Sequence record: PQ821640
Reading direction: 5' to 3' (one strand)
DNA: 64,000 nucleotides
Source: Escherichia phage SD2
The translations under genes were made by a program, and so were the position numbers. This document shows positions 5,760 through 63,991 of this stretch, piece by piece; positions within the stretch are counted from its first letter, which is position 1, and each line of letters opens with the position of its first letter. The notes under the pieces are model-generated. The model ran no database searches and was not told where the DNA came from. It was given only the letters and a program-made list of their open reading frames with translations.

Positions 5760-6188
5760 TTATTCTCCAAATCGAAAATCGTCAATATCATCAAACCATA
5801 CACAATGGCGAGTCCTTTCTTTTTCTGTTGCAGACATTGTTTCAACAGCTTTAGGACTAAGCACAACAGGAATGTAACGAACAGGTCGTTCATAATAGTA
5901 GCCATACTTTTCTGTATTAGCTGCCTCAAAGACTTTACGGCGTTCTTCAAGATCTTCTATGGTGAATCCTACCATATAACCATCATGTTTGCTACCCCAT
6001 CCTTCCTCACTTTCAACAATCGGGATATAAAAGCCGTTACGCGTCCCTGACGCTGGTTCCTCTTGAGCCTGAAGGCAAGCCTCCCATCCTGCTTTAAAGA
6101 CGTTATAGAGCGATTTACGCACGTTATGAGTGCCGCTTTCGCTTGCTGGATAGAGTTCATTAAACTTGTCTTGGATTTGTTGTGTCAT
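5760..6188 (-). CDS. hypothetical protein
   Basis: 142-aa ORF; AAGGGG SD. Confidence 0.7.
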   Translation of the reverse strand: MTQQIQDKFNELYPASESGTHNVRKSLYNVFKAGWEACLQAQEEPASGTRNGFYIPIVESEEGWGSKHDGYMVGFTIEDLEERRKVFEAANTEKYGYYYERPVRYIPVVLSPKAVETMSATEKERTRHCVWFDDIDDFRFGE

Positions 6189-6331
6189 ACTCGCCCCTTA
6201 GTGATTATTTGACCAGCTAAACAAATAGCTTGTAGTACAATAAAGAAGTAGCCTAATTTTACACTACCCAATACCCAGAATGCAATGTTTGCAAACAAAC
6301 AAAAAGTAATATTAAGTCTAAAGAATAACAT
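6185..6331 (-). CDS. small hydrophobic protein (48 aa)
   Basis: Hand translation MLFFRLNITFCLFANIAFWVLG...; start abuts upstream stop; stop overlaps next start (ATGA). Confidence 0.35.
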   Translation of the reverse strand: MLFFRLNITFCLFANIAFWVLGSVKLGYFFIVLQAICLAGQIITKGRV

Positions 6332-6532
6332 TTAATCCCCTTCATATTTAGGTAAAGGCATATATGCCACAATGGGAGGGTAATCAAAGTGAAAATGATG
6401 GTTCACCACAATAATCTTACCAGACATACTTTTATGCACTTCACAATACCCTTTTCCACCATCTTCCATTACCACCACATACTCACCTAGTGGGATATCG
6501 TATGGATCTTCTACTTTTACCCATTCTGTCAT
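6332..6532 (-). CDS. hypothetical protein
   Basis: Track ORF 6332..6598 starts at GTG with no SD; internal ATG at 6532 has GAGGAG SD and ATGA overlap with upstream small ORF. Confidence 0.55.
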   Translation of the reverse strand: MTEWVKVEDPYDIPLGEYVVVMEDGGKGYCEVHKSMSGKIIVVNHHFHFDYPPIVAYMPLPKYEGD

Positions 6533-6684
6533 TTTGTAGACTCCTCGTAGTAAGGTAAAGCCCTGATCAGTTGTTCTGAAGTGCCATTTTGCACCCACGT
6601 AACACCATTGTCAACAGAAACATACCCTTTTTTGTCAATAAATTTACGCAGACAGCCAGTGAACTTATTTTTGTAGATAACCAT
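6529..6684 (-). CDS. small hypothetical protein (51 aa)
   Basis: Hand translation MVIYKNKFTGCLRKFIDKKGYVSVDNG...; AAGGAG SD. Confidence 0.4.
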   Translation of the reverse strand: MVIYKNKFTGCLRKFIDKKGYVSVDNGVTWVQNGTSEQLIRALPYYEESTK

Positions 6685-6696
6685 CTTTACTCCTTG

Positions 6697-7050
6697 TTAC
6701 ATCCACAGGTTATGAAAATACTTAGCAAACAAAATACGACCTTCTAAACGATCTTGCCGTTGTTTTTCATTAACTTCTTCTGGTGGAGTTGAGTCCTTAA
6801 AAGAAGACTCCATTTTTTCAAGAATTTCTAACCAGTGTTCTGCTGCTCGTTCTTCCATATAAGGTAGATAGTCACCTTTAGCGTGTGGGTACATCCGACG
6901 AAGTAACCCACTAGGAATTTTAACATTGTTTGTGGCTATCACTTTTGCACGATACGCAGAAAGTGCATTGTAGATCAGTTTACTTAGTGTCACATCCAGA
7001 TCAAGAAGATCACTCTCTTCAAATTGAATTTCATCGTGTACAATTTTCAT
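6697..7050 (-). CDS. hypothetical protein
   Basis: 117-aa ORF. Confidence 0.65.
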   Translation of the reverse strand: MKIVHDEIQFEESDLLDLDVTLSKLIYNALSAYRAKVIATNNVKIPSGLLRRMYPHAKGDYLPYMEERAAEHWLEILEKMESSFKDSTPPEEVNEKQRQDRLEGRILFAKYFHNLWM

Positions 7051-7334
7051 CGTGCCTTCTCCCGATCTGCATCTAATTTCAACAAGAAATCTGTATACTC
7101 TTCCGAACCTTGGTGTAAAAACATGTGATAAGAGCTTACCAGTTTCTTCGTTGTCGTATAACGTTCCATTTCCCCAACAACACCTCCACCTAGTGTGTAG
7201 AGCACAATACCTTCAACTCCAACATAGGTTACTACTTCAACCAAGTCTGTGTTATCCCAATAGTAGTTAGGTGACACAATAAGATCGCCCACTGCCAGTT
7301 TAATGTTTGCTACTTCGTCTTGTGAATAATACAT
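7047..7334 (-). CDS. hypothetical protein
   Basis: 95-aa ORF; 4-nt overlap with neighbour. Confidence 0.65.
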   Translation of the reverse strand: MYYSQDEVANIKLAVGDLIVSPNYYWDNTDLVEVVTYVGVEGIVLYTLGGGVVGEMERYTTTKKLVSSYHMFLHQGSEEYTDFLLKLDADREKAR

Positions 7335-7346
7335 TTGGTTCTCCTC

Positions 7347-7640
7347 TCACATTAAGACACGTTTTGTGTTGATGGGAGCATCATCAAACATGTTAAGAAC
7401 ATTGTCAAGCAGTTTTACTAATTCATTTGTAATTTGTTCCCTTGAACGGGAGGAAGTGAGCACTTTGCTTTCACCAACAATATGCATAACTTTTATAGGA
7501 GCATCTAAAATGATGTTGTGCTGACGATCCTCTTCAAAAGAAGCCAACCATTTCTCATTGTTACCGTGCAAGGCTACAATCACACCAAAACCGTTAATTG
7601 TTTCAGAAATATTCTTAGTTGCTAAAGTAATGTTCATCAT
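7347..7640 (-). CDS. hypothetical protein
   Basis: 97-aa ORF; first gene of the leftward block next to the divergent region. Confidence 0.65.
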   Translation of the reverse strand: MMNITLATKNISETINGFGVIVALHGNNEKWLASFEEDRQHNIILDAPIKVMHIVGESKVLTSSRSREQITNELVKLLDNVLNMFDDAPINTKRVLM

Positions 7641-7696
7641 CTACCTCTTTTGTTACGATACACACAGAGTACCAGAAACTAATTTCAGATCAAGTA

Positions 7697-7724
7697 TTGA
7701 CATACTGTTTTATTGTGCTAATCT
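7697..7724 (+). promoter_or_regulatory. sigma70-like promoter (TTGACA-16-TAATCT)
   Basis: TTGACA at 7697-7702, -10-like 7719-7724, upstream of ORF starting 7757. Confidence 0.5.
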
Positions 7725-7756
7725 TAATGCATACACAAATGAGAGGAGATAAACGA

Positions 7757-8559: not shown

Positions 8560-8579
8560 AATACAGACGGGAGAAAGGT

Positions 8580-8753
8580 ATGAGTTTCTTTGTTACAGTA
8601 TTTATGGCTATCTGGATTGTAGTCTCACTCGTTCTTTTCCTGGTGGGTTGTCTGGAAGAGATTAAGAAAGCAGTTATTTGCGGTTTCTTTGGCTTTATTA
8701 TCTCTCCTGCCTGGATGTGGTTCTTCATTATGATTGGTTTCCTTAAAAGGTAA
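8580..8753 (+). CDS. small membrane protein (57 aa)
   Basis: Hand translation MSFFVTVFMAIWIVVSLVLFLVGCLEE...; GGGAGAAAGG SD. Confidence 0.5.
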   Translation: MSFFVTVFMAIWIVVSLVLFLVGCLEEIKKAVICGFFGFIISPAWMWFFIMIGFLKR

Positions 8754-8767
8754 GTGAGGAATAAAGA

Positions 8768-11960: not shown

Positions 11961-12020
11961 TATTTTGAAAATTTTTATTTTTATAAAAAGGGGTGTGGGT
12001 TTCATGTACGGAAATTCACC

Positions 12021-12041
12021 CTCTGAATAATATATTCAGAG
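12021..12041. repeat. perfect inverted repeat CTCTGAATA-ATA-TATTCAGAG
   Basis: 9-bp stem, 3-nt loop, read directly; overlaps a second palindrome CAGAGTA...TACTCTG (12037-12062). Confidence 0.6.
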
Positions 12042-12174
12042 TAAATATTATTTTGTACTCTGTTAATAAATTATTTAATTTGTTTGTTGGATTATGATAT
12101 CTGGTTTTTAAAAGGCATACTATCTCTTAACTACTACTTATAACAGAACAGTAAAATCATTTTTATAAAAAGGA

Positions 12175-12382
12175 CAAAATTATTTAAAGTTTTTACAGAT
12201 TTTTGGATACAAATTTTGAAAATGAAAAGTTCAAGTTTGGTCAAAATTATTTAAAGTTTTTGTATGTATTTCTATCCAGATTTTGAAAATGAAAACTTCA
12301 ATTTTTTAAAAATTCCCCAGTTTATTTAAAGTTTTTTTACCTTTTTCCGTAGAAAAATCAAAAATGAAAAGTTCAATTTCGT
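12175..12382. repeat. three tandem direct repeats of about 68 bp
   Basis: Each unit begins TTATTTAAAGTTTTT and ends TTTTGAAAATGAAAAGTTCAA; AT-rich, non-coding. Confidence 0.7.
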
Positions 12383-12400
12383 GTTTTTATGGGTATGCGT

Positions 12401-12515
12401 ATGATAATCATTCTCATTTGTAAATGAGAATCATTATCATTTAATTATGTAAATGATAAGCATTCTCACTAAGAGAATGAGAATCATTAGCAAATGAGAA
12501 TTTTTCTCATTTGCA
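12401..12515. promoter_or_regulatory. cluster of five or more Fur-box-like dyad motifs
   Basis: ATGATAATCATTCTCATT, AATGAGAATCATTATCATT, ATGATAAGCATTCTCA, GAGAATGAGAATCATTAGC, AATGAGAATTTTTCTCATT; compare E. coli Fur box GATAATGATAATCATTATC. Confidence 0.45.
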
Positions 12516-12772
12516 GAATAACGCGCAGGGGCGGTGTTTGTCTCGCGCTCCCGTGTCCCCTCGCCATACAATAAGAATAGCATAACCAACAACAAAAGCA
12601 AGCGATTATTTTTATCTTTACATTTCTTTACAAATTTATTTTAGACGAGCTACCGGCGATCAACCTTCCAACCAGTGCCCCTGGTATGTTAGCCCCGCCT
12701 TTACGCCGTGGGGGTGGCGCTTCCTCTTCTGTATGTAAAACAGTATAAGCCCGATCCCTGGGCTTGTCAAGA

Positions 12773-13039
12773 TTATTTTTTGTTTTCTTGCCAGGATAGG
12801 ACACCTAACCAAAAATACATGTCGCCCCGTGCCCCTGGCGGGATCTTGCTTTCCCCGCCGCCACTGCAAGCCCATAAATAACCATTTACGAACGTATCAA
12901 AGTGATCTATCTCTTCCACCTTATGATCGCCCAGGTTGAGAACGGTTTCAACCTTTAAGCCCGTTGCGCTTGCTACCTGGTGCACCGTGCCGCCTTGCCA
13001 GCCCAATGAGTGCATGAGATGTAAAGGAGTATTTGTCAT
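12773..13039 (-). CDS. hypothetical protein inside a GC-rich, compositionally atypical segment
   Basis: 88-aa ORF on the opposite strand to the surrounding plus block, within 12520-13130 which is visibly GC-richer; overlapping track ORFs in other frames judged spurious. Confidence 0.4.
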   Translation of the reverse strand: MTNTPLHLMHSLGWQGGTVHQVASATGLKVETVLNLGDHKVEEIDHFDTFVNGYLWACSGGGESKIPPGARGDMYFWLGVLSWQENKK

Positions 13040-13149
13040 GGTATCGCCCTTTCTTTGATGTGCGCCCTGGTTGGCGCGGTAGAAAGATAATAGCCGTTTC
13101 CTTTATAGATAGCAAGCAAAAAAGAAATGAAAAAAGATTAAAAAAATGG

Positions 13150-13591: not shown

Positions 13592-13954
13592 ATGAGCAAG
13601 CAAATCAATACTATCATGTTAAACCTGGTATCTTTCCGCGATGACGTGAAAAACCTTTCGCGTGATGCAGTGGATGCACGGATCGAAAGCTATCGCACAC
13701 AGATCGCAACGTTACCGCTGAAACGTGATCAACATGCCGCTAATATGATGCTTGATGCTATGATTAAAAAGATGATTCAATGTGATCTTACCCTGGCTTA
13801 TGAATATGCTGGCGATCTCTTTGTAACATATAGCAAGCCCGTTCCAGGTATGAGCACCACGGAAGAATTGCATGCCTTAAATCTGCGACAAGATGCATGG
13901 GATAACATGCGCCGTGTTATGGTATGGGTAGAAAGCGGTAAAATTTACGAATAA
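13592..13954 (+). CDS. hypothetical early protein
   Basis: 120 aa; AAGGG SD. Confidence 0.7.
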   Translation: MSKQINTIMLNLVSFRDDVKNLSRDAVDARIESYRTQIATLPLKRDQHAANMMLDAMIKKMIQCDLTLAYEYAGDLFVTYSKPVPGMSTTEELHALNLRQDAWDNMRRVMVWVESGKIYE

Positions 13955-14032: not shown

Positions 14033-14179
14033 ATGAAACAATATGTAATGAGTATTCATACCAAAAACGGCGCTACTGTTACGACTCCGGCACGGTTTGC
14101 ACTTGTAAACCGTTGCAAGAGACTAAAACGAGAGTTAAAAAATAACCGTGCAACGGGCTTTAAACGCTGGGGAGGATAA
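14033..14179 (+). CDS. small basic protein (48 aa)
   Basis: Hand translation MKQYVMSIHTKNGATVTTPARFALVNRCKRLKRELKNNRATGFKRWGG. Confidence 0.5.
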   Translation: MKQYVMSIHTKNGATVTTPARFALVNRCKRLKRELKNNRATGFKRWGG

Positions 14180-14181: not shown

Positions 14182-14442
14182 TTGTTTTTTCTAAAAGTTT
14201 TTGATAATGTGATCGCTTTTGAACATGCTACAACGTTCGACCTGGCGAGATACGCTATCAGGTTTAAAGATAATGTTTATCCCCGTGCTGGCGGCGGTTA
14301 CACTATTTTTAATCATCGCAACGCGCAACTGACTGATGTAACTAATCCAGATCCTGGAGTGTATCGCATAGGCTGGCTACCGTCAAAAGACGCGGCAAGC
14401 ATGTTTAAGTTATGTAAACTACTAACAGAAGAGGCGAACTAA
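14182..14442 (+). CDS. hypothetical protein, TTG start
   Basis: GGGAGG 6 nt upstream of TTG; no in-frame ATG near the start. Confidence 0.45.
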   Translation: MFFLKVFDNVIAFEHATTFDLARYAIRFKDNVYPRAGGGYTIFNHRNAQLTDVTNPDPGVYRIGWLPSKDAASMFKLCKLLTEEAN

Positions 14443-16820: not shown

Positions 16821-16991
16821 ATGATCACTTTCGCTACCCGTGAAGCCGCTCGCAACGTTGCACGTAAAGTTAACGCCGCCAACCTGGGCGCTACGCTTAA
16901 AGCCCCGGTGAAAGATGAATCAGGAAAATGGATCTTTCCTGGTCTGCGTCACGCTGATAAGCTGGGGACATTAACGTTAAAAAATAAATAA
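16821..16991 (+). CDS. small hypothetical protein (56 aa)
   Basis: Hand translation MITFATREAARNVARKVNAANLG...; GAGGAAA SD. Confidence 0.55.
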   Translation: MITFATREAARNVARKVNAANLGATLKAPVKDESGKWIFPGLRHADKLGTLTLKNK

Positions 16992-17121: not shown

Positions 17122-17259
17122 ATGAACGCATCACAGCAGATCGAAAAATTCAACCGCAGCAAGGCGCGTAAAAATTGGAACGAAGAGATCACCAAGAAAG
17201 GCGATAAGCGGAACAAAACAAAAAGAGATCGCAGCACAAAAAGACACTGGAACGAATAA
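17122..17259 (+). CDS. small basic protein (45 aa)
   Basis: MNASQQIEKFNRSKARKNWNEEITKKGDKRNKTKRDRSTKRHWNE; GAGAGGAAA SD; terminator immediately downstream. Confidence 0.5.
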   Translation: MNASQQIEKFNRSKARKNWNEEITKKGDKRNKTKRDRSTKRHWNE

Positions 17260-18322: not shown

Positions 18323-18418
18323 ATGCCCTATTTACATTTATTTTTCGGTATCTTATTGACAGGATCTTTTTTCTTCTGTATGCTTGTTTCTATTGTAAAC
18401 CACGTTTTAAGACATTAA
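18323..18418 (+). CDS. tiny hydrophobic peptide (31 aa)
   Basis: MPYLHLFFGILLTGSFFFCMLVSIVNHVLRH; AAGGAG SD. Confidence 0.3.
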   Translation: MPYLHLFFGILLTGSFFFCMLVSIVNHVLRH

Positions 18419-18427: not shown

Positions 18428-18547
18428 ATGAAAATTATTCCCGTACAGTATAGCGTAATAAATCCAGCATATGAGGAAGGAAGGAAAACAAGCATGGCTT
18501 TATGTTGTATTACTACTATAGCCATGTTATTATATATTGTGTTTTAA
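18428..18547 (+). CDS. tiny membrane peptide (39 aa)
   Basis: MKIIPVQYSVINPAYEEGRKTSMALCCITTIAMLLYIVF; AAGGAAA SD. Confidence 0.3.
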   Translation: MKIIPVQYSVINPAYEEGRKTSMALCCITTIAMLLYIVF

Positions 18548-18576
18548 TAGGTTTTATAGTTGTACGCTTTAAAGGC

Positions 18577-18604
18577 TTGACAATTTTTTGTTATGCTTTA
18601 AAAT
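18577..18604 (+). promoter_or_regulatory. sigma70-like promoter (TTGACA-16-TAAAAT)
   Basis: Read directly. Confidence 0.45.
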
Positions 18605-18647
18605 ATATCTTGAAAACGGCAAAGGCCGCAAACAAAAGGGTAAAATT

Positions 18648-18971
18648 ATGAAATCTGTGATCGGTGTTTATTTGGATAACTCTGATTTTTTCTATCATCG
18701 TGCGCGTTTCCTTGATGCGATTGAAATGATAGAATCAGGCTTTAAAGAGTATCGCCTTGCACATGATGACCTGGAAGCATTACAGGGCAATAGTGTTTTT
18801 ACATTGCAAGCTAAAGCACTATGTAAAAGCCGGATCGACATTGCGAGCAAAAAGATAGAACGCGGCATGTCCTGGTTACGCACCGCAGAAATTAACATGG
18901 GGCAATGGTACGGCGAAAACTTAGAAAATAAACTCACTTTTGTAAATGTAGAAAATCTTAAAGATTATTGA
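18648..18971 (+). CDS. hypothetical protein
   Basis: Start trimmed to ATG at 18648. Confidence 0.6.
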   Translation: MKSVIGVYLDNSDFFYHRARFLDAIEMIESGFKEYRLAHDDLEALQGNSVFTLQAKALCKSRIDIASKKIERGMSWLRTAEINMGQWYGENLENKLTFVNVENLKDY

Positions 18972-19418: not shown

Positions 19419-19523
19419 ATGATTATTCTTACCATGATGTGCGCGGCGGTTATTATTCCTTTGATAACGCTTATTGTTTCTGAGATCGATGATCTTCTCT
19501 TTGAAAGAAGTTTAAAAAAGTAA
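19419..19523 (+). CDS. tiny membrane peptide (34 aa)
   Basis: MIILTMMCAAVIIPLITLIVSEIDDLLFERSLKK. Confidence 0.4.
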   Translation: MIILTMMCAAVIIPLITLIVSEIDDLLFERSLKK

Positions 19524-19585
19524 TTGACAACGGCTAATAAGCTGATAATATGTATCACATAGGGCGGGGCAATAAGGCAACGCCC
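19524..19585 (+). promoter_or_regulatory. promoter (TTGACA-17-TAATAT) plus weaker hairpin GGGCG...CGCCC
   Basis: 5-bp stem with long loop. Confidence 0.5.
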
Positions 19586-19603: not shown

Positions 19604-19708
19604 ATGTTAGAGAAAATTTTCACGGTTGTAATAGTGGGCCTGGCGTTATCGGTTGGAGTGATTGCAACTATGGCTAACATGATCCTATCTTCCCACGGTA
19701 TCGGCTAA
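19604..19708 (+). CDS. tiny membrane peptide (34 aa)
   Basis: MLEKIFTVVIVGLALSVGVIATMANMILSSHGIG. Confidence 0.4.
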   Translation: MLEKIFTVVIVGLALSVGVIATMANMILSSHGIG

Positions 19709-21741: not shown

Positions 21742-21751
21742 ATAACATTTC

Positions 21752-21785
21752 ACACCAGGGCGCACAAAGCGCCCTTTCTTTTTTA
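21752..21785 (+). terminator. rho-independent terminator
   Basis: AGGGCGC-ACAAA-GCGCCCT then TTCTTTTTT. Confidence 0.75.
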
Positions 21786-21988
21786 CCTAAATAAAGATGA
21801 TAGCTTTTACCTATCAAAAACGTTCACCGAAAAAAGTGAATAGATCGCGGTATCGAGCTAATCAAGGAGCAGATGAACAACCATACCATGAAGATCATAA
21901 GGCGCTTACAACGTGTTTTAGACCGCTTATTTTTAATTTCTTCATGTAACTATCTGGCAAAAACAGCCTTTTTCTTGTCTTTCCTCTT

Positions 21989-22065
21989 AAATGATAATCA
22001 TTCTTATTTATAGCTGATTATTTATGCAATAAACTGAATAATGTAATAATGATAATCATTCTTAA
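21989..22065. promoter_or_regulatory. two direct copies of AATGATAATCATTCTTA (Fur-box-like)
   Basis: At about 21989 and 22047 inside an AT-rich non-coding region. Confidence 0.45.
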
Positions 22066-22890
22066 CTTAAGACCATCTAACCTATAAAATAATAAGTTAT
22101 CTAACTAAATTAAAACTAATTATCTCACCTTTATTTATAACTTACTGTTACTATCTCATTGATAACCTTATATTAAACAACAATAACTAATATAAATTAT
22201 TACTAAGCTAAATATAATCTATCTAACCTTTAAAACTATAATTATAATCTATCGAATTGTTGCACAAAGTAACTATTAAATTGTTAGTAACATTACTAAA
22301 TAATTAATATCCTATCTATTTATGATCTAATCTTTACCTTCCTATTTATTACCTAAATAATCATTTCATACCGTAATCATTTCATACAATAATTATAACA
22401 AGAAATATAATTAACAAGCGTATCATTAGCAGCCTATGCCGGACACATAGGCGGCTAATAATAACGCAACTACACACCCCACATAATAACCATCACCGAT
22501 AGTTATTATTTGTGCTTATGTAGCTTGCAACAACTGCAAGCGCAACAATATACATGGTATATTGTATTCCCTTACATTGTTGCGGTGCGTTATTATTAGC
22601 TAATGTTTGGAACATTGGCTATAATATAAGCTATCCAATAATAAACATAGTGAATAATAACCCTGATGATCATAATGCGCCACCTTCCAGGGGGCGCTAT
22701 GTGAACACAAAGAAATCTTTCTTGTCAAGAAAAATATTACCATTATTGCGCAAAATTATTTACATCTGAATAGATGGTTTTTCATACTATTGCCCCATAT
22801 AGCCTATCATTTGTTGAGCCTACTTTCTTAAAAGCGCAATAAATTAGAATTATCTTGATTTTTAGGGCGTTTTATAGTATAGAAAATATG

Positions 22891-22915
22891 CAAATGATAA
22901 TCATTATCAGTTATC
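22891..22915. promoter_or_regulatory. Fur-box-like site AATGATAATCATTATC
   Basis: 16 consecutive matches to the E. coli Fur consensus as I recall it. Confidence 0.5.
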
Positions 22916-23070
22916 TTCCACGGGTGGCACTATTTCACGCAGGATCATTTCATTTGGCAAGGTGTATATAGATGTTTAGACTTGCCAAGCCATTGATTTG
23001 CTTAGAATTTATCTGTTTTGTTGTGAGTAATGCCTTTCTTGCTCAGAAAATAATCAAAAGTCTTATAAGT

Positions 23071-23114
23071 CATTGAATGATAATGCAAATGATAATAATT
23101 CTCATTGATATTTG
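23071..23114. promoter_or_regulatory. degenerate tandem Fur-box-like motifs
   Basis: GAATGATAATGCAAATGATAATAATTCTCATTGATA. Confidence 0.4.
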
Positions 23115-23512
23115 AGGGGGACGGTCAGCAGAAATCGGGGGGCGCTGAAAATCGCGTTAAGCACCTCTCGCAAGCGAGCAGTATTTTGCGGCAAGTTATT
23201 GATATTATTGACTTTACGCTTATGAAAAGGGGGTGTGTCGAAATAAATCGGGTATACCGGAAAATTTTTGTGGCATAGATATTTATTTGTCTATATTATG
23301 TACAAAGGGGTGTGTTAAAAATATTAGGTATATATAGAATAATTGATAGGGAAATCCTATACTAAATCCTTCATTATTGCAGCGGGTGAAAGACAGAATC
23401 GAAGATGCAAATAATGCTTGCATTGGATAGAAATGTCTGTATAGTGGTTTGCATACCGCGCACGACGCGTTTCCATTTTCAATAAAATGTTAGCATTATG
23501 GGGAGGTAGAAA

Positions 23513-23980
23513 ATGAGCGAAAAACCAGTGAGAGCTTCCACAATATTGGAAGCATACCTGCAATGCGTTGTAGATTACGTCAAGAGAAACTCCAGCCTAC
23601 TGGACGTCTACCGTGCAGATGATGGCGATGTTGGTATTGTCTATGTGAAACACACTTTATCCGCGCGTAATGAGGTTTTCCGTGCAAGTATGTTAGGGTG
23701 TGATCGTGTTCGTGTGAACTATTTAGACCCGAACTATCGCCATGCTCTTGAAGATATTGAAGATTATCTTCCTCGCTGCCCGACAGGTAATGCAAAAGTG
23801 GCAGAAGAAGCCCCACAAGGTGTTGATTATCGTGTAGCCTTGTGGAAAAAGGCACGTCAACTACAAGTGCTGAATGAAATGAAAGAAGAGATTGAAAAAG
23901 AACTGAAAGAAGATTTTGGTATGCTTCCAAAAGACGCTTTGAAATGGTATGATGAACTAGGAGGAGAAAGTTATGAATAA
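23513..23980 (+). CDS. hypothetical protein
   Basis: 155 aa; GGGGAGG SD. Confidence 0.7.
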   Translation: MSEKPVRASTILEAYLQCVVDYVKRNSSLLDVYRADDGDVGIVYVKHTLSARNEVFRASMLGCDRVRVNYLDPNYRHALEDIEDYLPRCPTGNAKVAEEAPQGVDYRVALWKKARQLQVLNEMKEEIEKELKEDFGMLPKDALKWYDELGGESYE

Positions 23981-24149
23981 AGGAACTACTGTATATTTAG
24001 TGACTAAGAACACCCCAGGTTGGAATCAGTGCACAACAACTCCGTATAAGATTTGTGCAACATTGGAACTAGCACGACGTGCAGAAGCAGAAGTTGATGC
24101 TATGCGATACAGCTATGGTGAAATCATTCCTTTTACTCTTCAACAATAA
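23973..24149 (+). CDS. small hypothetical protein (58 aa)
   Basis: MNKGTTVYLVTKNTPGWNQCTTTPYKICATLELARR...; GGAGGAG SD; overlaps upstream stop. Confidence 0.45.
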   Translation: MNKGTTVYLVTKNTPGWNQCTTTPYKICATLELARRAEAEVDAMRYSYGEIIPFTLQQ

Positions 24150-24613: not shown

Positions 24614-24825
24614 TATATATGTAATGACAGATACATTCTTCGTGTATCTGATAAGTCTCCTATGTTTGACTGGCGGGGCTGGTGGCTACTGGCTCCGATG
24701 CAAGGTCTGACTGACGTGGAAAAGGAGGCTTATGTGTATACAAAAGAAGAGATAGAAGATAGCCTTTATTTGACAGATAATATTAAGAATGGTATCTTTG
24801 AGTGTAAATTGAAAGGAGAGGAAGA

Positions 24826-25125
24826 ATGACTGTTACAGAAAAACTGCGCTGTATTGCAAAGCAAAGTGGGGAAGGCTTATGGTTTCCTATTGATGAAGTT
24901 ATTCAAGACTGTTATGATCAGGCAAAAACTGGCAAATACTCCAAGGCATTTAAACCATCTGTTTTCGGTTTGGATGACTACCCGACAAATGAACAAGCAA
25001 AGAAACGTCAAGTTGATTTGATTGATCTTGCTATGGAAGCACTACGAGAGCGTGGACTTAGTAAGGTGTATGCTTTAAACACCAAAGAAGGTTTTGTAGA
25101 TTCAGTGATCGTAGACTGGCATTAA
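24826..25125 (+). CDS. hypothetical protein
   Basis: 99 aa; AAGGAGAGGAAG SD. Confidence 0.7.
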   Translation: MTVTEKLRCIAKQSGEGLWFPIDEVIQDCYDQAKTGKYSKAFKPSVFGLDDYPTNEQAKKRQVDLIDLAMEALRERGLSKVYALNTKEGFVDSVIVDWH

Positions 25126-25723: not shown

Positions 25724-25948
25724 ATGGTAAAACGTCTGGAATGGGATGCGTGTACTGCTCACGCTTGTCACTGCGATATTGTGGAAGATCCTAATGGAGA
25801 AATGGTGTATTATGAGAACTACGAAGCATTGCACAATGCTGTGATTGCTTTGCTGGATGATATTAGCTCACGCTACCCAGGACAACAATTCACGTGTCCA
25901 CATATTCAACTGTTAGCCAAACTTACGGAGTATCCAAGTGTTCCATAA
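25724..25948 (+). CDS. hypothetical protein, paralog of 31078..31341
   Basis: Shares CDIVxDPxGxxV motif. Confidence 0.65.
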   Translation: MVKRLEWDACTAHACHCDIVEDPNGEMVYYENYEALHNAVIALLDDISSRYPGQQFTCPHIQLLAKLTEYPSVP

Positions 25949-26126
25949 TATGGGTGTCCCTGAACAACTACTCTTTATTGTAGGACTAGTAGGCTTATTG
26001 GCGGCTGGAGCTAAAGCCGCTTCTCACACGCGTCACATAATGTTAAGATTTCTATTCCTGCTCCCTTCTATCCTCGTACTACTAGTCATACTGATCGATA
26101 ACATTTTTCACAATTAAGGAGAGGTC

Positions 26127-27809: not shown

Positions 27810-28020
27810 AACGCACTTTATACATCCGTTTGATCCAAAGAACAAGGCGGTCATACACCGCCGTTGGACTGAAACGCGCATTACAAAATGTCCTGTGCCA
27901 GCAGCACAGGAATATAACAAAACATATAAAGCAGAATTCGTGGAGTACACCTTTGTGAATAACAAAGGGAAGGAGGTTTATGTTCCAGAATACTGCCTTT
28001 GGATAAAATGGGAGGAATAA
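27802..28020 (+). CDS. hypothetical protein
   Basis: Start trimmed to ATG at 27802; overlaps upstream stop. Confidence 0.6.
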   Translation: MSKTHFIHPFDPKNKAVIHRRWTETRITKCPVPAAQEYNKTYKAEFVEYTFVNNKGKEVYVPEYCLWIKWEE

Positions 28021-28187
28021 TGCAAACATTTTTTATCGACAAGTTCAACAAAAATATGAACACGTGGATGGCAACATTCACTATGCAATTTGCGTCATTT
28101 AAAGAGGCTCAAGAATGGTGCGATCAACACAAGGATTTTGATTTTTACTATCAAATTAATCCAAATCTCTCTCCAGAGGAGAAATAA
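28020..28187 (+). CDS. small hypothetical protein (55 aa)
   Basis: ATG at 28020 after GGGAGGA; TAATG overlap with upstream stop. Confidence 0.5.
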   Translation: MQTFFIDKFNKNMNTWMATFTMQFASFKEAQEWCDQHKDFDFYYQINPNLSPEEK

Positions 28188-29733: not shown

Positions 29734-29981
29734 ATATCAAAGATGTTGTAGCATACGTAGCAGATGAAGTTAAAAACCATACAAGTTTACTGAAAGTAAT
29801 GGTTGTGGTTAAAAATGGCATTGGACAAGTAAACGTACAACATGTCTTATCTGATACTGTATATAATGTGTTTGAATGTAAAGACACACCTCATGGAGTA
29901 CGTGTGGTGTATATTGATAACAATTTCAAAGAGTGTGTGAGACATACCTTAAAAAATGAGCTAAGGATCACAACCTTATGA
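29730..29981 (+). CDS. hypothetical protein
   Basis: 83 aa. Confidence 0.65.
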   Translation: MNIKDVVAYVADEVKNHTSLLKVMVVVKNGIGQVNVQHVLSDTVYNVFECKDTPHGVRVVYIDNNFKECVRHTLKNELRITTL

Positions 29982-30151
29982 GTTATTATGTTGTACCTTA
30001 TGCCAATAAGTGGAGAGTAAGAGAAACTTGTTTTCTATTCTCCTGGTGGGCTACATTCGGAGATGGTTGTGGAAATGATACAGGAAAGCCTGTAGAGTAT
30101 GACACAAAAGAAGAATGTGAACAGTGGATAAAATTAACACAAAGATGTTGA
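29978..30151 (+). CDS. small hypothetical protein (57 aa)
   Basis: MSYYVVPYANKWRVRETCFLFSWWATFGDGCGND... Confidence 0.45.
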   Translation: MSYYVVPYANKWRVRETCFLFSWWATFGDGCGNDTGKPVEYDTKEECEQWIKLTQRC

Positions 30152-30429: not shown

Positions 30430-30664
30430 AGAATTAGGCATGCGAGTATACAGTGAGTGGACTCCAAGCAATGGCCCAGGAGTTGTTGCAGCTAAGTGTA
30501 TCAATGGTCGTATTGAGTACCTGGAAGGTTATGAAGATAATGAAGAGTTAGTAGATTATGCTAAATCTTTTATTGAAGATGATACAGACTTTATTGTATT
30601 ATATGATACAGGAGAGTTAGAGTATGGATATGATGGAGATGGGGATATCTTTGAACTTCAATAA
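30422..30664 (+). CDS. hypothetical acidic protein
   Basis: Start trimmed to ATG at 30422 after GAGGAGA. Confidence 0.6.
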   Translation: MIKELGMRVYSEWTPSNGPGVVAAKCINGRIEYLEGYEDNEELVDYAKSFIEDDTDFIVLYDTGELEYGYDGDGDIFELQ

Positions 30665-30746
30665 GAGTAGTAAGTAAGATATAAAGAGTGTATAGTTAGT
30701 AACATTACATATACTCTTTCCATGTATAACATGGAATATTCTCTAC

Positions 30747-30859: not shown

Positions 30860-31078
30860 TTGTACAAATTATATAAAGCAAAAGATAAGTTTACGGGTAA
30901 TACATCTGGTTTCTATGTAACACCTCGTGGTGTTGCTGTGTTCGATTGGATCTCTGGTACTCCAGATCGTGAAATGATCTCTCTTGTAAAACTGTCGGAA
31001 CAAGAGTACACTTACGGTGACATTACAACATTCTATTCTCGTGCAGAAAATCCAAAACTGATCGCGGAGTGGGAATAA
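30860..31078 (+). CDS. hypothetical protein, TTG start
   Basis: GAGGAG 7 nt upstream of TTG. Confidence 0.5.
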   Translation: MYKLYKAKDKFTGNTSGFYVTPRGVAVFDWISGTPDREMISLVKLSEQEYTYGDITTFYSRAENPKLIAEWE

Positions 31079-31341
31079 TGGTTACACGATATGGCTTAGA
31101 GGTGTACAGCCAAGGTGCTGCTGGTCAGTGTGATATTGTACCAGATCCAGAAGGGGATTATGTTCTTCTTGCTGATTACAATAAGCTAGAAGAAAGACTT
31201 CTGGCTGTGTATGCTAAAGAAAACAAAACAATCTGCCCTTATTGCAGTGGAATGGGTTGGGTGGTTGCAGATGTTGGACAAATGTACGAATGTGTGCCTT
31301 GTAAAACCACAGGATTTATTGAAAAGGATACTGACAAATGA
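31078..31341 (+). CDS. hypothetical Cys-containing protein (paralog of 25724..25948)
   Basis: ATG at 31078 overlaps upstream stop (TAATG); CPYCSG...CVPC. Confidence 0.6.
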   Translation: MVTRYGLEVYSQGAAGQCDIVPDPEGDYVLLADYNKLEERLLAVYAKENKTICPYCSGMGWVVADVGQMYECVPCKTTGFIEKDTDK

Positions 31342-33380: not shown

Positions 33381-33485
33381 ATGATGACGTTTATTGTTGG
33401 TGTTGTTGTTGGTTATTTTGGTCACAAGTATCAGGATGTTATCATCGCTAAAGTTGACGAAGTAATCGAAAAATTTAAACACTAA
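33381..33485 (+). CDS. tiny membrane peptide (34 aa)
   Basis: MMTFIVGVVVGYFGHKYQDVIIAKVDEVIEKFKH; GGAGAAG SD. Confidence 0.4.
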   Translation: MMTFIVGVVVGYFGHKYQDVIIAKVDEVIEKFKH

Positions 33486-33536: not shown

Positions 33537-33710
33537 ATGTTCAAAGATACCAATTATAAATGTGTACATTGTGGTAAATCTTTTGGTGATCACCAAGCTA
33601 AGACGTTCAATTGTCCACGAAAAGGGCGAGGTAGCTTTAAAGGTTTTAATCCATCCCACGTTTATTCTCCCAACTACGAGAAACCAGAAGAAGAAAAATT
33701 TGTAATCTGA
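33537..33710 (+). CDS. small zinc-ribbon-like protein (57 aa)
   Basis: MFKDTNYKCVHCGKSFGDHQAKTFNCPRKG...; AAGGAGAG SD; replaces overlapping track ORF 33508..33705. Confidence 0.5.
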   Translation: MFKDTNYKCVHCGKSFGDHQAKTFNCPRKGRGSFKGFNPSHVYSPNYEKPEEEKFVI

Positions 33711-37145: not shown

Positions 37146-37268
37146 ATTACCCCCAATGTATATGGGAAATTAACCAAAAGATAAATTCCCAAAAACACCA
37201 ACCAAGAAAAGTTAATGGAATTATAAAAGCTATCAAAGCAGTCTTCCAGCCTTTCCACAATGTTTCCA

Positions 37269-38258
37269 TCATTCCTCCATACACTTAAGAATATGTGCAA
37301 TGACAGGTATAGTCCAACCATTACCTAACATCTTATATGCTTGTGTGTTACTACTTACTTTAAAGTAATCATCTGGAACACCTTGTAAGCGGCAACACTC
37401 TTTAACCGTTAACTTTCTATAATGCACACCTTCACTCAATTTTTCAAAGGCATCCAGATATCTTCCAGGTGGAATGTAAGCTAATAGTACGTCTTTCGGC
37501 ACAGTCGTGAGGCAACGAGTTTTTTCACTGTCCTGAACTTCCAAGCAATGTACCAAACGATCAGTTTTAGATGTACTACGTTTGCCATTTTCATTAATTC
37601 TACGCCCATATATTGCCGCTGGATAAAAAACCAGTTGTCTGCGACTCTTTTCAAAATACTGTTCTATATTACCACCTTTGGCATAATTTGCATCTATGCA
37701 ATACGCCTTGTCCCTGTCTACAATACTATCATCTTCAATGATATCTTGCAACACTTCATTGGTAATATCCCAAGGCTTTATTTCCCAATTGCACCAGTAT
37801 AAACGTTGTCTATTCTGTGCCGTGAAATCTGCGGAGTTAATGAACACAGGATCAACACCTAAGTAACTTGTGATCACGTTTTCCCACTCCACCTTCATCT
37901 TAACGTTTTCAAGCATGAACTTAACATTAGGGTTAAACTTTTTAATATGTTCAAGGATTTCAACATATTCAAAGAACAGTTTAGATCGCGGATCTTGAAA
38001 GTTCAAACCCTTACCAGAAGAAGAGAAGCCTTGGCACGGACTACCACCTAGCAAAAGATCAATTTCTCCCCACGGGATATCCCATTCTCTCCATTTTGTA
38101 ACATCACCTAATTGAACAATATCTGGAAAATTGGCTTGGCTTTCAGCTATGGCAAATTTGTCCAACTCTGAAGCATAATACTTATCTACTTCAATACCTG
38201 CACTTTTTAGTGCAAGCATTCCTCCTGACATACCATCAAAAAGACTTAAAACTTTCAT
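37269..38258 (-). CDS. DNA (cytosine-5)-methyltransferase
   Basis: Motif I FDGMSGG, motif IV GGSPCQGFS, motif VI ENV. Confidence 0.9.
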   Translation of the reverse strand: MKVLSLFDGMSGGMLALKSAGIEVDKYYASELDKFAIAESQANFPDIVQLGDVTKWREWDIPWGEIDLLLGGSPCQGFSSSGKGLNFQDPRSKLFFEYVEILEHIKKFNPNVKFMLENVKMKVEWENVITSYLGVDPVFINSADFTAQNRQRLYWCNWEIKPWDITNEVLQDIIEDDSIVDRDKAYCIDANYAKGGNIEQYFEKSRRQLVFYPAAIYGRRINENGKRSTSKTDRLVHCLEVQDSEKTRCLTTVPKDVLLAYIPPGRYLDAFEKLSEGVHYRKLTVKECCRLQGVPDDYFKVSSNTQAYKMLGNGWTIPVIAHILKCMEE

Positions 38259-46918: not shown

Positions 46919-47062
46919 TTAGTCGCCCTCCCCATGATCTAGCTCTTGAAACAGTAGGTGTTCAGGAGACATTTCACGTTTAGGCTTCGTCTTTTTAGTT
47001 TGGGACTTAAGCTCTGTTGCCAAAGCACGAGAAAAGATCTTACGTTTCTGTTTACCTTTCAT
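46919..47062 (-). CDS. small basic protein (47 aa)
   Basis: MKGKQKRKIFSRALATELKSQTKKTKPKREMSPEHLLFQ...; GGAG SD. Confidence 0.4.
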   Translation of the reverse strand: MKGKQKRKIFSRALATELKSQTKKTKPKREMSPEHLLFQELDHGEGD

Positions 47063-50798: not shown

Positions 50799-51125
50799 TT
50801 ACCAAACGTGTTGAGAAATAATAGTTTCCGTTTCAATGTTATATTTTTCAAGAAGTTGTGCATAGGCTTCTTTTGCATTCTTATTTAGTTGCTCAAGATC
50901 TACAGCTACACTTCCTTCGCCACCTTCTAAATAAATCCCATATATGCAATAAGATGCATCAGCGTCATAGAAAGGTGAGATACGGCTTAAATCAAGACCT
51001 TCTTGTAAGAACCAATTAAAATCTCCATCAAATTCTTCTTCAATTCTAGGATCTTCTCCTACAGCCTCTTCCCATTTATTAAAAGGCGCACCCTGTAATA
51101 TACGCCATGCAATATCAATTCCCAT
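50799..51125 (-). CDS. hypothetical acidic protein
   Basis: 108 aa. Confidence 0.6.
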   Translation of the reverse strand: MGIDIAWRILQGAPFNKWEEAVGEDPRIEEEFDGDFNWFLQEGLDLSRISPFYDADASYCIYGIYLEGGEGSVAVDLEQLNKNAKEAYAQLLEKYNIETETIISQHVW

Positions 51126-51261
51126 TATCTTCCTCCTCTTCTTTTTCTTCCGTATGAACGAAACCTAAACCGTTACAATTCCAACAAGGAATAAATTGTT
51201 CCATACTAACAATAAAATTCCCAGTGCCACCACAGACAGGACAAATACTTACATCATCCAT
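51115..51261 (-). CDS. small zinc-ribbon protein (48 aa)
   Basis: MDDVSICPVCGGTGNFIVSMEQFIPCWNCNGLGF...; GGAG SD. Confidence 0.4.
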   Translation of the reverse strand: MDDVSICPVCGGTGNFIVSMEQFIPCWNCNGLGFVHTEEKEEEEDNGN

Positions 51262-61487: not shown

Positions 61488-61579
61488 TTGATCGTAGTCT
61501 ATTGCAAGAATTGTGTTCTCGTCAACATATTTGTGCAGGTCTTCCGGTTGGATTAAAATGTAACCGCTAATATTACCTC

Positions 61580-61795
61580 CTATTCATCATCATCTGAACT
61601 CTCTGTTGAGAATGTTCGTGTGTAGGGACACTGACGACTTGCAGAAACCTCTATAACCTTGTCGTACATACCGTTAGAGTAAAAACAGTATTTTGTACTT
61701 CCAGAAACTTGTTCTCCAGAATTAATTAAAGTTATTTGACCAGCATAAGAATAAGAACTGATTACTAAAAGTAAACCGACAAGAAGTTTTTTCAT
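61580..61795 (-). CDS. small secreted protein
   Basis: MKKLLVGLLLVISSYSYAGQ signal-peptide-like N-terminus; GGAG SD. Confidence 0.6.
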   Translation of the reverse strand: MKKLLVGLLLVISSYSYAGQITLINSGEQVSGSTKYCFYSNGMYDKVIEVSASRQCPYTRTFSTESSDDDE

Positions 61796-61869
61796 GGTGT
61801 GTCTCCTTAAAAGCCCACCTAACTAAGTAGGTAGGCATATTAACACATATTAAATTAGTAAGTCAAGTA

Positions 61870-62754
61870 TTATTTTTGAATAGTTGACTTGATAAGGTCT
61901 TGCATAATACCACGGATTTCGTTAAAGCACAGAAGGACAGATGCTTCAAAAGATCCTTCTTCATCATTAAAGTATTTAGGGAATTTAATACCACTCAACT
62001 TAAATTCTTTATCAACAATAAAGTTAACGAAACCGTCATATTCCAGGCCAATGGCAACAACGTGCTTACCATCTTCCATAAGTTCTACTGCACGAGATTC
62101 ATAAAGGGACTCTTTACTCCATACAACCACACCTTCCGAATCTTCAAGTTTAATATAATTACCCAGGGTCAGTCGTTCAGCCTCATGTTCTTCTAAGATG
62201 GTATCAAAACCTTTAATAATGGCTTCTTCGTGTACACTAAACGGCAGAACTGGGAAAGTACCCAACACCTCACGAAGAAATACAGCAATATCTTCACTAA
62301 TTTTCTTAGAACCATTAAGAACATAGGTAATACTGTTTTCAGTGTCTACAACAACATAGTTATAGAAATCATCTGCCTCTGTTTCTGGGAGCAGAGAAAA
62401 GACAATATCAGCCTCAATTGCTTTTTTGCTTTCTTTGTCCAAGAAGAACTCTTTAGTAGGATTTGCAGCAATAAACTCTTGTTCCATCTCCTGGAGTTTT
62501 TCATTAAGAATGCGTTTAACTTTCTTCTTGTTAACTTTCTTAACAGACTGCCCTACTTTAATAACCTCTAAACCAGAGAACACTTTTACATAGGAACCAT
62601 CATCTTCAAAACGAACAAGACCAATGGTATGTGCTTGTTGCCCCTGTGCCACAACAAAATCCAGCGGTTTGTCTGTTACTGTGTTCAGTGCTGAAATAGA
62701 CAGACCATCACCAGAAATCAGGGTTACGCAAGATTTGAAATTTTTAGCAAACAT
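61870..62754 (-). CDS. rdgC: RdgC-like recombination-associated protein
   Basis: Track start is TTG; ATG at 62754 has GAGGAG SD. SLLPETEADDFYNYVVVDTEN...LREVLGTFPVLPFS aligns with my recollection of E. coli RdgC. Confidence 0.6.
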   Translation of the reverse strand: MFAKNFKSCVTLISGDGLSISALNTVTDKPLDFVVAQGQQAHTIGLVRFEDDGSYVKVFSGLEVIKVGQSVKKVNKKKVKRILNEKLQEMEQEFIAANPTKEFFLDKESKKAIEADIVFSLLPETEADDFYNYVVVDTENSITYVLNGSKKISEDIAVFLREVLGTFPVLPFSVHEEAIIKGFDTILEEHEAERLTLGNYIKLEDSEGVVVWSKESLYESRAVELMEDGKHVVAIGLEYDGFVNFIVDKEFKLSGIKFPKYFNDEEGSFEASVLLCFNEIRGIMQDLIKSTIQK

Positions 62755-62764
62755 AGTTTTCTCC

Positions 62765-63043
62765 TCAAATAACAACTACAAAATATTTTACACCATCATA
62801 TTCGACAATATGATCAGGATATTTAAATCCTTTATAAGATTTACCAAACAGACTAACAGCTTCATTAGCTTTGTTTTGCGGATTACTCAACCACTGTTCT
62901 TCTGTGTAAAACTTAAATTCTGTTCTCTTACCTTCTTTTTCTAAACCAACAATTTCCTGTGTGATATCTTCAATACCTGCATTCTTCAAGGATTTAATTA
63001 CCTGACGCAAACCGTGTTTAAAGATATCTTCTGCTGTTAACAT
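62765..63043 (-). CDS. hypothetical protein
   Basis: 92 aa; GGAGG SD. Confidence 0.6.
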   Translation of the reverse strand: MLTAEDIFKHGLRQVIKSLKNAGIEDITQEIVGLEKEGKRTEFKFYTEEQWLSNPQNKANEAVSLFGKSYKGFKYPDHIVEYDGVKYFVVVI

Positions 63044-63056
63044 AATACCTCCAATA

Positions 63057-63072
63057 AGCCCCCGAAGGGGCT
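63057..63072. terminator. intergenic hairpin (possible terminator)
   Basis: AGCCCC-CGAA-GGGGCT; T-rich on the plus side only. Confidence 0.4.
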
Positions 63073-63079
63073 TTATTTC

Positions 63080-63802
63080 TTAAGCAATGATTGCTGCGAT
63101 ATTAGGTTTAACAAAGGTAGATGGCTTCATAATTTTACCTTTGTCATCAAAGAATACGTATACCTTTTGAACTTCGTTATATACAGCATGTACTCCAGTA
63201 TAAGAACCTTCTGCACGATCTTTGCTTCGCATCTCGATAGCATCACACTCTTTTTCAAGAGCTTCAACAATATCCTTAGTTTCCCAAATAGCCAGGAGTT
63301 GCTTCTTGGTAGGATACTTGGACTCATTGCTATTCAACACTTCACGCATAACCTTCTTCTCGTTATAAACAGAACGCACCAAAGTATCTCGTGCCATACG
63401 TGTAAGTGTAAGAGACATTAGGGCAAATTGCAAGTCATTTTCTACCATTTTATCAAATTCAATGATAACATCGTAAATGTTTTCTGCCAGAACATCTCCT
63501 GTCGGCATTTCCAGAGCTTTATCAACACCTTCTTTACCAAAGAACATAAACGCCAGGTAGGATGCTACCACAAAAATATCTGCTGCTGCATCAAGTAATT
63601 CAACGTGATCATTTTCCTGTGCTGCTGCTTGGAACTCTTTTAGTTCTTCTCGTACAAAAGAAAGTTGAGCTTCAAACATCTCTTGAGTAAACTCTGGAGT
63701 TACGCCACCACGTGCCTTAGCATTCCAAGCAACAATTTGATCGGCAGCTTTGATAAAGAAGCTATTGTCCACTTTTACTTGTTTGAAAAAATTCTCGATC
63801 AT
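63080..63802 (-). CDS. putative MazG-like nucleotide pyrophosphohydrolase
   Basis: EELKEFQAAAQENDHVELLDAAADIFVV resembles the MazG EExxE...D motif; tentative. Confidence 0.45.
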   Translation of the reverse strand: MIENFFKQVKVDNSFFIKAADQIVAWNAKARGGVTPEFTQEMFEAQLSFVREELKEFQAAAQENDHVELLDAAADIFVVASYLAFMFFGKEGVDKALEMPTGDVLAENIYDVIIEFDKMVENDLQFALMSLTLTRMARDTLVRSVYNEKKVMREVLNSNESKYPTKKQLLAIWETKDIVEALEKECDAIEMRSKDRAEGSYTGVHAVYNEVQKVYVFFDDKGKIMKPSTFVKPNIAAIIA

Positions 63803-63811
63803 TATTTCTCC

Positions 63812-63991
63812 TTATTTAAAATATTGTTCTAACAAAACACTAATGCGAACTACCGATTCGCCCATATACGCCCCAGCACAGAGGAAAACAACAAATCTAC
63901 AAAAATTGCAGTACCATTTGTTCACTGGAAACGAGGCTAACATTATAATTGCAATAGCAATTAACATCATAAGAAATGTTACTAATACCAT
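63812..63991 (-). CDS. small membrane protein (59 aa)
   Basis: MVLVTFLMMLIAIAIIMLASFPVNKWYCNFCRFVVFLCAG...; GAGG SD; below track cutoff. Confidence 0.35.
   Translation of the reverse strand: MVLVTFLMMLIAIAIIMLASFPVNKWYCNFCRFVVFLCAGAYMGESVVRISVLLEQYFK

Follow-up and report, generated by a model that had tools for sequence, protein, structure and literature searches.

The genomes of large phages typically carry many small genes. In phage rV5, the block equivalent to the one considered here comprises "88 mainly small ORFs" (open reading frames), a non-coding stretch and 33 σ70-type promoters (PMC3606486). The early blocks of rV5 and phAPEC8 are made of dense genes of ~30-130 codons lying near the genome end, many with σ70-type promoters of their own; most are ORFans, and they lie beside a non-coding stretch. 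The same organization, with no material difference, is found in a 64,000-nucleotide (nt) stretch of Escherichia phage SD2 (record PQ821640), referred to below as the window. Here we examine the window ORFs that fall short of 60 codons and were therefore passed over by an ORF track with a cutoff at 60 amino acids (aa). About 20 of them are very probably ordinary, conserved protein-coding phage genes missed through that cutoff.

These genes are not new, being already annotated in phi92 and other records. The phi92 genome (FR775895.2 / NC_023693), annotated manually with ribosome-binding site (RBS) features, contains 18 coding sequences (CDSs) of less than 60 aa that match window ORFs: gp002, gp004, gp009, gp014, gp021, gp032, gp033, gp042, gp062, gp070, gp090, gp207, gp211, gp213, gp219, gp228, gp235 and gp237. 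The window ORFs are syntenic orthologs of these (86-100% aa identity, same RBS motifs annotated); in the phi92 record gp033 is labelled "zinc finger-containing" and gp070 "DnaJ chaperone". Two differences from phi92 are apparent. The start codons of gp004 and gp009 are changed in the window, and the window ORFs 18428, 19419 and 19604 (ORFs are designated here by their first coordinate), together with the doubtful 18323, 5329 and 21873, are annotated in records other than that of phi92. The VivaForever and tuntematon records include additional small ORFs of the set. All ten of the peptides looked up, out of 24 candidates, already figure as hypothetical proteins in public collections, the doubtful 18323 among them.

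Megablast searches with positions 12-34 kb and 40-64 kb matched hundreds of ~146 kb Escherichia coli myoviruses, with phi92, PHB05, W22, VivaForever and muut as top matches (95-99% identity). By this measure the window is part of the genome of a phi92-like Justusliebigvirus (Stephanstirmvirinae). The sister genus Phapecoctavirus shows ~75-85% DNA identity to the window, and the rV5-like Vequintavirus has patches in common with it. Genes are arranged in three strand blocks (minus from 1 to ~7.6 kb, plus from ~7.7 to 34.6 kb, minus from 34.8 to 64 kb); neither tRNA genes nor Rfam matches were found in the window. The direct terminal repeat of phi92 (343 bp) has a single match, at 22817-23159 (96% identity), which identifies this segment as a single collapsed copy of the repeat and indicates that the window spans the physical genome end. 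The surrounding ~1.8 kb (21742-23512) is devoid of supported genes.

Small ORFs in the gaps between larger genes

A preliminary description of the sequence had proposed at least 20 small genes below the track cutoff, listing ten of them without strands (one, 4828-4992, outside its own range). Each of the ten opens with ATG, runs uninterrupted and ends at a stop codon; seven lie on the plus and three on the minus strand. A crude gene model combining codon log-odds with Shine-Dalgarno (SD) energy was built, and all gaps separating genes of 60 aa or more were scanned on both strands, yielding 24 candidates of less than 60 aa. These were compared with 14 genomes: eight Justusliebigvirus (J), five Phapecoctavirus (P) and one Vequintavirus (V), represented by loci L001-L023. 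The set was drawn from GenBank phage records because an IMG/VR scan with two anchor proteins gave only six loci. For each ORF, codon alignments were built from tblastn matches, distinct synonymous and non-synonymous variants were counted against neutral expectation (ω, with an approximate p-value), and intactness was recorded genome by genome. Three of the GenBank records (MG065650, loci L014/L015; MG065645, L020/L021; MG065677, L022/L023) are titled "UNVERIFIED: Campylobacter phage"; their ~96% identity to Justusliebig-, Phapecocta- and Vequintaviruses of E. coli makes the host label doubtful.

By these analyses 16 candidates are classed as strongly supported, four as probable and four as unsupported or equivocal. 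They are, in genome order (phi92 ortholog in brackets):

4828-4992, minus strand: 54-aa basic soluble protein (gp207); strong. AGGAG 6 nt upstream; ω=0.33, p=4e-7; intact in J 6/6, P 1/1; phrog_10388, E=4e-33; in NCBI as Phi92_gp207.
5329-5454, minus strand: 41-aa ORF with TTG start; equivocal. Zero variation among six J genomes; no P homolog, no PHROG match; annotated in PHB05 and PD06, not in phi92.
6185-6331, minus strand: 48-aa hydrophobic peptide with two hydrophobic segments (gp211); probable. Four synonymous against three non-synonymous variants, ω=0.21, p=0.05, within the genus only; phrog_27111, E=1e-35; ATGA overlap with the downstream gene, 0-nt gap upstream.
6529-6684, minus strand: 51-aa soluble protein (gp213); strong. 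AGGAG; ω=0.33, p=7e-7; intact in J 6/6, P 4/4; phrog_2381; ATGA overlap.
8580-8753, plus strand: 57-aa two-helix membrane peptide (gp219); strong. ω=0.49, p=2e-3; intact in J 7/7, P 4/4, the P orthologs being 26% identical with hydrophobicity kept; phrog_22950.
14033-14179, plus strand: 48-aa very basic protein, net charge +11 (gp228); strong. ω=0.18, p=2e-8; intact in J 6/6, P 1/1; own promoter-hairpin-SD cassette; phrog_8393.
16821-16991, plus strand: 56-aa basic soluble protein (gp235); strong, with the highest constraint of the set. ω=0.15, p=1e-14; intact in J 6/6, P 5/5; phrog_13689.
17122-17259, plus strand: 45-aa basic protein of the T7 gene 1.1 family (gp237); strong. ω=0.26, p=6e-10; intact in J 6/6, P 5/5; KGDKRNKTKR invariant, including in Phapecoctavirus.
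18323-18418, plus strand: 31-aa hydrophobic ORF; unsupported. AGGAG SD, but one synonymous against three non-synonymous variants; no PHROG match; missing in P; annotated in some records only, e.g. bas62_0126.
18428-18547, plus strand: 39-aa single-pass membrane peptide, unannotated in phi92; strong. ω=0.40, p=3e-4; intact in J 6/6 and, with the helix kept and 36-39% identity, in P 4/4; phrog_10979, "membrane protein".
19419-19523, plus strand: 34-aa peptide with a single membrane pass, carried on a mosaic module; probable. No homolog among the 14 genomes; 100% identical in ten other phage records, three of which annotate the ORF; phrog_7482, E=6.5e-10.
19604-19708, plus strand: 34-aa single-pass membrane peptide, unannotated in phi92; strong. 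ω=0.41, p=1e-3; intact in J 5/5, P 3/3, V 1/1; phrog_14631; own promoter and hairpin; tail ATMANxILSSxGIG invariant from Justusliebigvirus to Vequintavirus.
21873-22013, plus strand: 46-aa ORF bordering the non-coding terminal region; doubtful. AGGAG SD, but ω=0.51 and no codon periodicity (variable sites 32/25/33); intact in P 0/4; no PHROG match.
23973-24149, plus strand: 58-aa soluble protein (gp002); strong. AGGAGG; ω=0.21, p=7e-8; intact in J 5/6, P 2/2; phrog_24303.
24662-24829, plus strand: 43-55-aa acidic protein (gp004, 70 aa in phi92); strong as a coding sequence, with an uncertain start at 24662 or 24698. ω=0.27, p=7e-7 for the 24662 version; phrog_9903.
25938-26117, plus strand: 59-aa two-helix membrane peptide (gp009), absent from the preliminary description; strong. 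GTG start, ATG in relatives; 19 synonymous against two non-synonymous variants, ω=0.04, p=6e-10; intact in J 6/6.
28020-28187, plus strand: 55-aa soluble protein (gp014); probable. GGAGG; five synonymous against four non-synonymous variants, ω=0.15, p=6e-3, within the genus only; phrog_24511; TAATG overlap.
29978-30151, plus strand: 57-aa protein with four Cys and no CxxC (gp021); probable. Four synonymous and zero non-synonymous variants, p=1e-3, within the genus only; phrog_15964; ATGA overlap.
33381-33485, plus strand: 34-aa peptide with hydrophobic N-terminus (gp032); strong. AGGAG; ω=0.32, p=2e-3; intact in J 5/5, P 4/4; phrog_11666; FIVGVVVGY...KYQDVI invariant.
33537-33710, plus strand: 57-aa C2HC zinc-finger-like protein (gp033); strong. 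ω=0.18, p=3e-8; intact in J 5/5, P 4/4; phrog_10623.
37147-37269, minus strand: 40-aa single-pass hydrophobic ORF (gp042, remarked upon in the phi92 annotation as "bad prodigal statistics"); equivocal. GGAGG SD and TGATG overlap; two synonymous against four non-synonymous variants; no PHROG match; frame open in 6/6 J genomes, an upstream ATG being present where its own is lost.
46919-47062, minus strand: 47-aa basic soluble protein (gp062), its gene flanked by those for lysozyme and glutaredoxin; strong. ω=0.15, p=2e-6; intact in J 3/3, P 3/4; phrog_14981.
51115-51261, minus strand: 48-aa protein with a DnaJ-type double CxxCxGxG zinc finger and an acidic tail (gp070); strong. ω=0.35, p=2e-8; intact in P 4/4; phrog_8027.
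63812-63991, minus strand: 59-aa membrane protein (gp090); strong. ω=0.27, p=3e-7; intact in J 3/3, P 4/4; phrog_19851.

Thus, the earlier estimate of at least 20 small genes holds (16 strong plus four probable). Eight of its ten examples fall into the strong class and 19419 into the probable one, while 18323 lacks support. Good ribosome-binding sites, also proposed at the time, are present at 22 of the 24 candidates in the form of an SD core (AGGAG, GGAGG, GAGG, GGAG or AGGA) that is 4 nt or longer and located 3-10 nt upstream from the start; 6185 and 19419 have 3-nt matches, and the alternative start at 24698 has none. To measure enrichment, we took 37 co-directional gaps, 9.1 kb in all, and counted the ATG ORFs that reach 30 aa and have an SD duplex energy no higher than -6 kcal/mol. 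Sixteen such ORFs are found on the transcribed strand and none on the opposite strand; 200 dinucleotide shuffles of the gaps gave 0.66±0.76 ORFs, with a maximum of three. SD-preceded small ORFs therefore exceed chance by far.

These figures bear on the suggestion that the candidates are not genes but frames that happen to be open in spacer or promoter sequence and are taken up by permissive gene callers. Such an origin would suit a minority of them: 18323, which contains a promoter-like element (TTGACA-17-TATGCT) and whose interval in Phapecoctavirus is occupied by a plain promoter-hairpin cassette; 21873, with its lack of codon periodicity; and 5329, with its TTG start only and absence of variation. 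Over-calling of this kind does occur, as the PHANOTATE-style annotation of VivaForever includes many ORFs in the non-coding terminal region, for which ω values of ~0.4-1.9 were obtained here. As an account of the whole set, however, chance is very improbable, facing a 16:0 strand asymmetry, a ~24-fold excess over shuffled sequences, in-frame ω values well below 1 and ORFs that stay intact in other genera at 26-80% aa identity.

Three further ORFs suggested by the first gene model were discarded: 1356-1439 (plus strand), which is antisense to the helicase gene, varies on third positions and is broken in relatives, and 22493-22555 and 30658-30732 (both minus strand), which are not intact in relatives. 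An ORF annotated in VivaForever at 18502-18651 was set aside in favour of the overlapping 18428-18547. A 52-aa version of ORF 19604 starting at 19550 was likewise rejected; its start lies within the promoter -10/hairpin region and it is intact in only two of five J genomes.

Selection and conservation across genera

The codon-level test was calibrated on both sides. Forty-six accepted genes of 60-100 aa gave ω values of 0.04-0.44 and were almost always intact in Phapecoctavirus. Off-frame ORFs inside long genes mostly gave values of ~0.8-8 or were broken in that genus, the exceptions with low ω being same-frame internal starts and an antisense frame sharing third codon positions. Because of these exceptions a low ω alone is insufficient, and position in a gap and intactness across genera were demanded as well. 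The preliminary description had named conservation in related phages as a check on its proposal. The 16 strong ORFs have ω values of 0.04-0.49 (p<=2e-3). Fourteen of them are intact in Phapecoctavirus and/or Vequintavirus, at 26-98% aa identity, and two more are supported within the genus; six ORFs beyond the 14, these two included, are intact in all the Justusliebigvirus genomes sampled. Ligand residues and hydrophobic helices are kept across orthologs at 26-60% identity. In the probable class, 6185, 28020 and 29978 (p 0.001-0.05) combine ω<=0.21, measured in the genus only, with a full-length PHROG match each, and 19419 shows no variation. PHROG matches were obtained for 19 of the 24 candidates, to families without known function.

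Several points weigh against reading these ORFs as genes. The p-values are approximate, for the variant counts ignore phylogeny and treat multi-hit codons crudely, and 14 relatives were sampled out of several hundred. The cases of 6185, 28020 and 29978 rest on 4-9 substitutions within one genus. There is no signature of selection at 5329, 18323, 21873 and 37147, none of which was found intact outside the genus among the 14 genomes; neither at these four nor at the invariant 19419 did the ω test give a clear excess of synonymous change. A literature search for Ribo-seq or early-infection proteomics of this phage group found none.

It has also to be considered that some of the small ORFs might be pseudogene remnants, decaying pieces of longer ancestral genes. 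Three observations could be taken in this sense. The start ATG of phi92 gp004 reads ATA in the window (region 24617-24829), the gp009 homolog starts with GTG where relatives have ATG, and the match of 14033 to phrog_8393 is confined to positions 2-48 of a 111-residue profile. The phi92 gp004 ATG, however, falls inside a TATAAT -10 box, has no RBS and was flagged as weak by the phi92 annotators themselves. In the V genome the version starting at 24698 is intact, whereas the one starting at 24662 was scored as not intact. Nor do 14033 and its neighbour at 14182 appear to be halves of one split or frameshifted gene, since they match different PHROGs, each over the full length. More generally, the ORFs have the same short lengths in all the relatives sampled and ω stays low; decay is very improbable.

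The interpretation of about 20 of the 24 candidates, and nine of the ten originally listed, as genuine genes hidden by the 60-aa cutoff follows from the purifying selection acting in frame, the intactness in Phapecoctavirus (for two of them in Vequintavirus), the PHROG memberships and the promoter, SD and operon context that they share with larger genes.

Promoter cassettes and gene packing

The small genes are distributed between an early "host-takeover" block (~13-34 kb, plus strand) and nucleotide-metabolism and replication operons on the minus strand, and would be expressed like their larger neighbours. Some would use a σ70-promoter/GC hairpin/SD/ATG cassette of their own; others would be translated from within tight operons, with stop and start codons touching or overlapping. 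One such early cassette recurs at least 12 times between 13.2 and 21.3 kb. It combines a near-consensus promoter, TTGACA-16/17-TAnnnT, with a GC hairpin (GCGGGAAATGGTTTCCCGC and variants), followed by an SD and an ATG, the -10 element ending 44-55 nt before the ATG. The cassette precedes large as well as small genes, including 14033, 19419 and 19604; at 19419 it is complete and its ATG is in register with those of the genes at 13592 and 16200. A near-consensus early promoter is predicted ahead of each of 18428, 19419 and 19604, which encode peptides of 34-39 aa; at 19419 and 19604 a GC hairpin comes after the promoter. At 16821 the hairpin is present and the promoter match is weak. It seems likely that the small ORFs are transcribed from these predicted promoters and translated.

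The preliminary description had pointed to stop-start overlaps as a mark of translational coupling among the small ORFs. Such overlaps do occur: of the 43 junctions that involve a small ORF, nine overlap, four as ATGA, two as TAATG/TGATG and others by 8 and 11 nt, and in 17 the separation does not exceed 4 nt. They are not special to small ORFs, however. Among large-gene junctions, 32 of 94 overlap (34%, against 21% for small ORFs) and 42 of 94 are no more than 4 nt apart, so that overlap reflects a genome-wide packing habit rather than a property of small ORFs. Coupling of individual small ORFs to their neighbours is plausible from this arrangement. The tight junctions could also be explained if these were leader or coupling ORFs, in which the act of translation tunes the downstream gene while the peptide itself is functionless. 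This would leave without explanation the purifying selection on aa sequence and the conserved motifs, ligand sets and helices, and it is at odds with the overlap being no commoner than among large genes. Moreover, 14033, 16821, 17122, 19419 and 19604 are free-standing, with gaps of 80-130 nt and predicted promoters of their own. We consider this explanation highly improbable.

Some other features of the plus-strand block were noted in passing. The interval 12000-12470 is gene-free and low in GC (22-25%), with tandem 67-79-nt repeats (2-3 copies) at 12159-12379 and 29-nt repeats at 12407-12468. Copies related to a AATGAGAATCATTATCATTT-like motif of this interval recur near the genome terminus, at 21990, 22870 and 23088. 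The repeats look iteron-like, and the region could be an origin, a packaging site or a regulatory site. Positions 12700-13050 form a patch of ~50% GC, against ~37% for the genome; this patch contains a gene (12773-12985/13039; phi92 gp224, ω=0.44) that is encoded on the minus strand, within the early block of the plus strand.

Predicted products of the small genes

The products would form a mixed group: small membrane peptides, small basic proteins (one of them a T7 gene 1.1 homolog) and two small zinc binders. The membrane peptides announced in the preliminary description are borne out by nine ORFs (6185, 8580, 18323, 18428, 19419, 19604, 25938, 37147 and 63812) predicted to encode hydrophobic peptides with one or two helices, with 19-residue Kyte-Doolittle maxima of 1.9-3.0. 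The hydrophobic segment is kept in the P or V orthologs of 8580, 18428, 19604 and 63812, down to 26% identity, and these products would be inserted into the membrane.

The "zinc ribbons" of the same description are loose wording, a ribbon being expected to have two CxxC-type knuckles that supply four ligands. ORF 51115 does carry two CxxC knuckles, but of the DnaJ type: the first motif is CPVCGGTG in both the window and Phapecoctavirus, and the second reads CWNCNGLG in the former and CLNCHGEG in the latter. No change is seen in any of the four Cys or in either Gly of the first motif; of the Gly in the second, just the last is invariant. The paired CxxCxGxG motifs, ~15 residues apart and invariant across two genera in a stand-alone 48-aa protein, are shared with DnaJ-type modules (PF00684), among them Anti-TRAP (PF15777), a small stand-alone protein of Bacillus. 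ORF 51115 has no J domain, ends in an acidic tail and falls short of the Pfam gathering thresholds (20.2 against 32.7 for DnaJ CxxCxGxG, PF00684; 19.3 against 32 for Anti-TRAP, PF15777). In 33537, C9, C12, H19 and C26 are invariant, making up one CxxC followed by His19 and Cys26 (C2HC). This protein gives weak matches to ββα C2H2 fingers in Pfam and, as short sequence matches, in the PDB, and its single-sequence AlphaFold model adopts a ββα arrangement at low confidence (pLDDT 66). Judging from these residues, 51115 and 33537 are probably two small zinc-binding proteins. By contrast, the CNFC sequence of 63812 is not conserved while its helix is, so it does not qualify as a metal site. The window contains a second DnaJ-type CxxCxGxG protein, the 87-aa gp025 homolog encoded at 31078-31341; it cross-matches the gp070 homolog (51115-51261) at ~30% identity.

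Among the basic proteins, 17122 belongs to the T7 gene 1.1 family (PF08200), scoring 43.2 bits against a gathering cutoff of 21 over model positions 2-40 of 40. It resembles the members of this family in being ~45 aa long, very basic and, by prediction, early-expressed. Unlike T7 gene 1.1, which resides in a T7-like podovirus, it is carried by a 146-kb myovirus. We know of no function for the PF08200 family, and membership therefore gives no mechanism. The small basic proteins 14033, 16821, 4828 and 46919 have no Pfam or PDB relative, and PDB sequence searches with eight peptides returned no significant relative save the short C2H2-like matches of 33537. The single-sequence AlphaFold model of 16821 is of low confidence, like that of 33537 (pLDDT 64-66 for the two).

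Interaction with host targets early in infection would be the likeliest role of these small proteins. It seems conceivable, as a tentative possibility, that 18428, 19419 and 19604, along with other small early proteins such as 16821, 14033 and the DnaJ-type finger protein, are uncharacterised host-takeover, superinfection-exclusion or anti-defence effectors.

A 60-aa cutoff thus hides ~15% of the genes of the window (~20 of ~140), a result whose importance is mainly one of annotation hygiene. Permissive callers err in the opposite direction by over-predicting in the non-coding terminal region, and conservation tests separate genes from such over-calls cleanly. The useful yield lies in the ORF-by-ORF triage, in the added gene at 25938-26117 with its GTG start and in the corrected start of the gp004 homolog. 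None of the small proteins stands out as unusual here, and any single one of them could prove to be a host-interaction factor.

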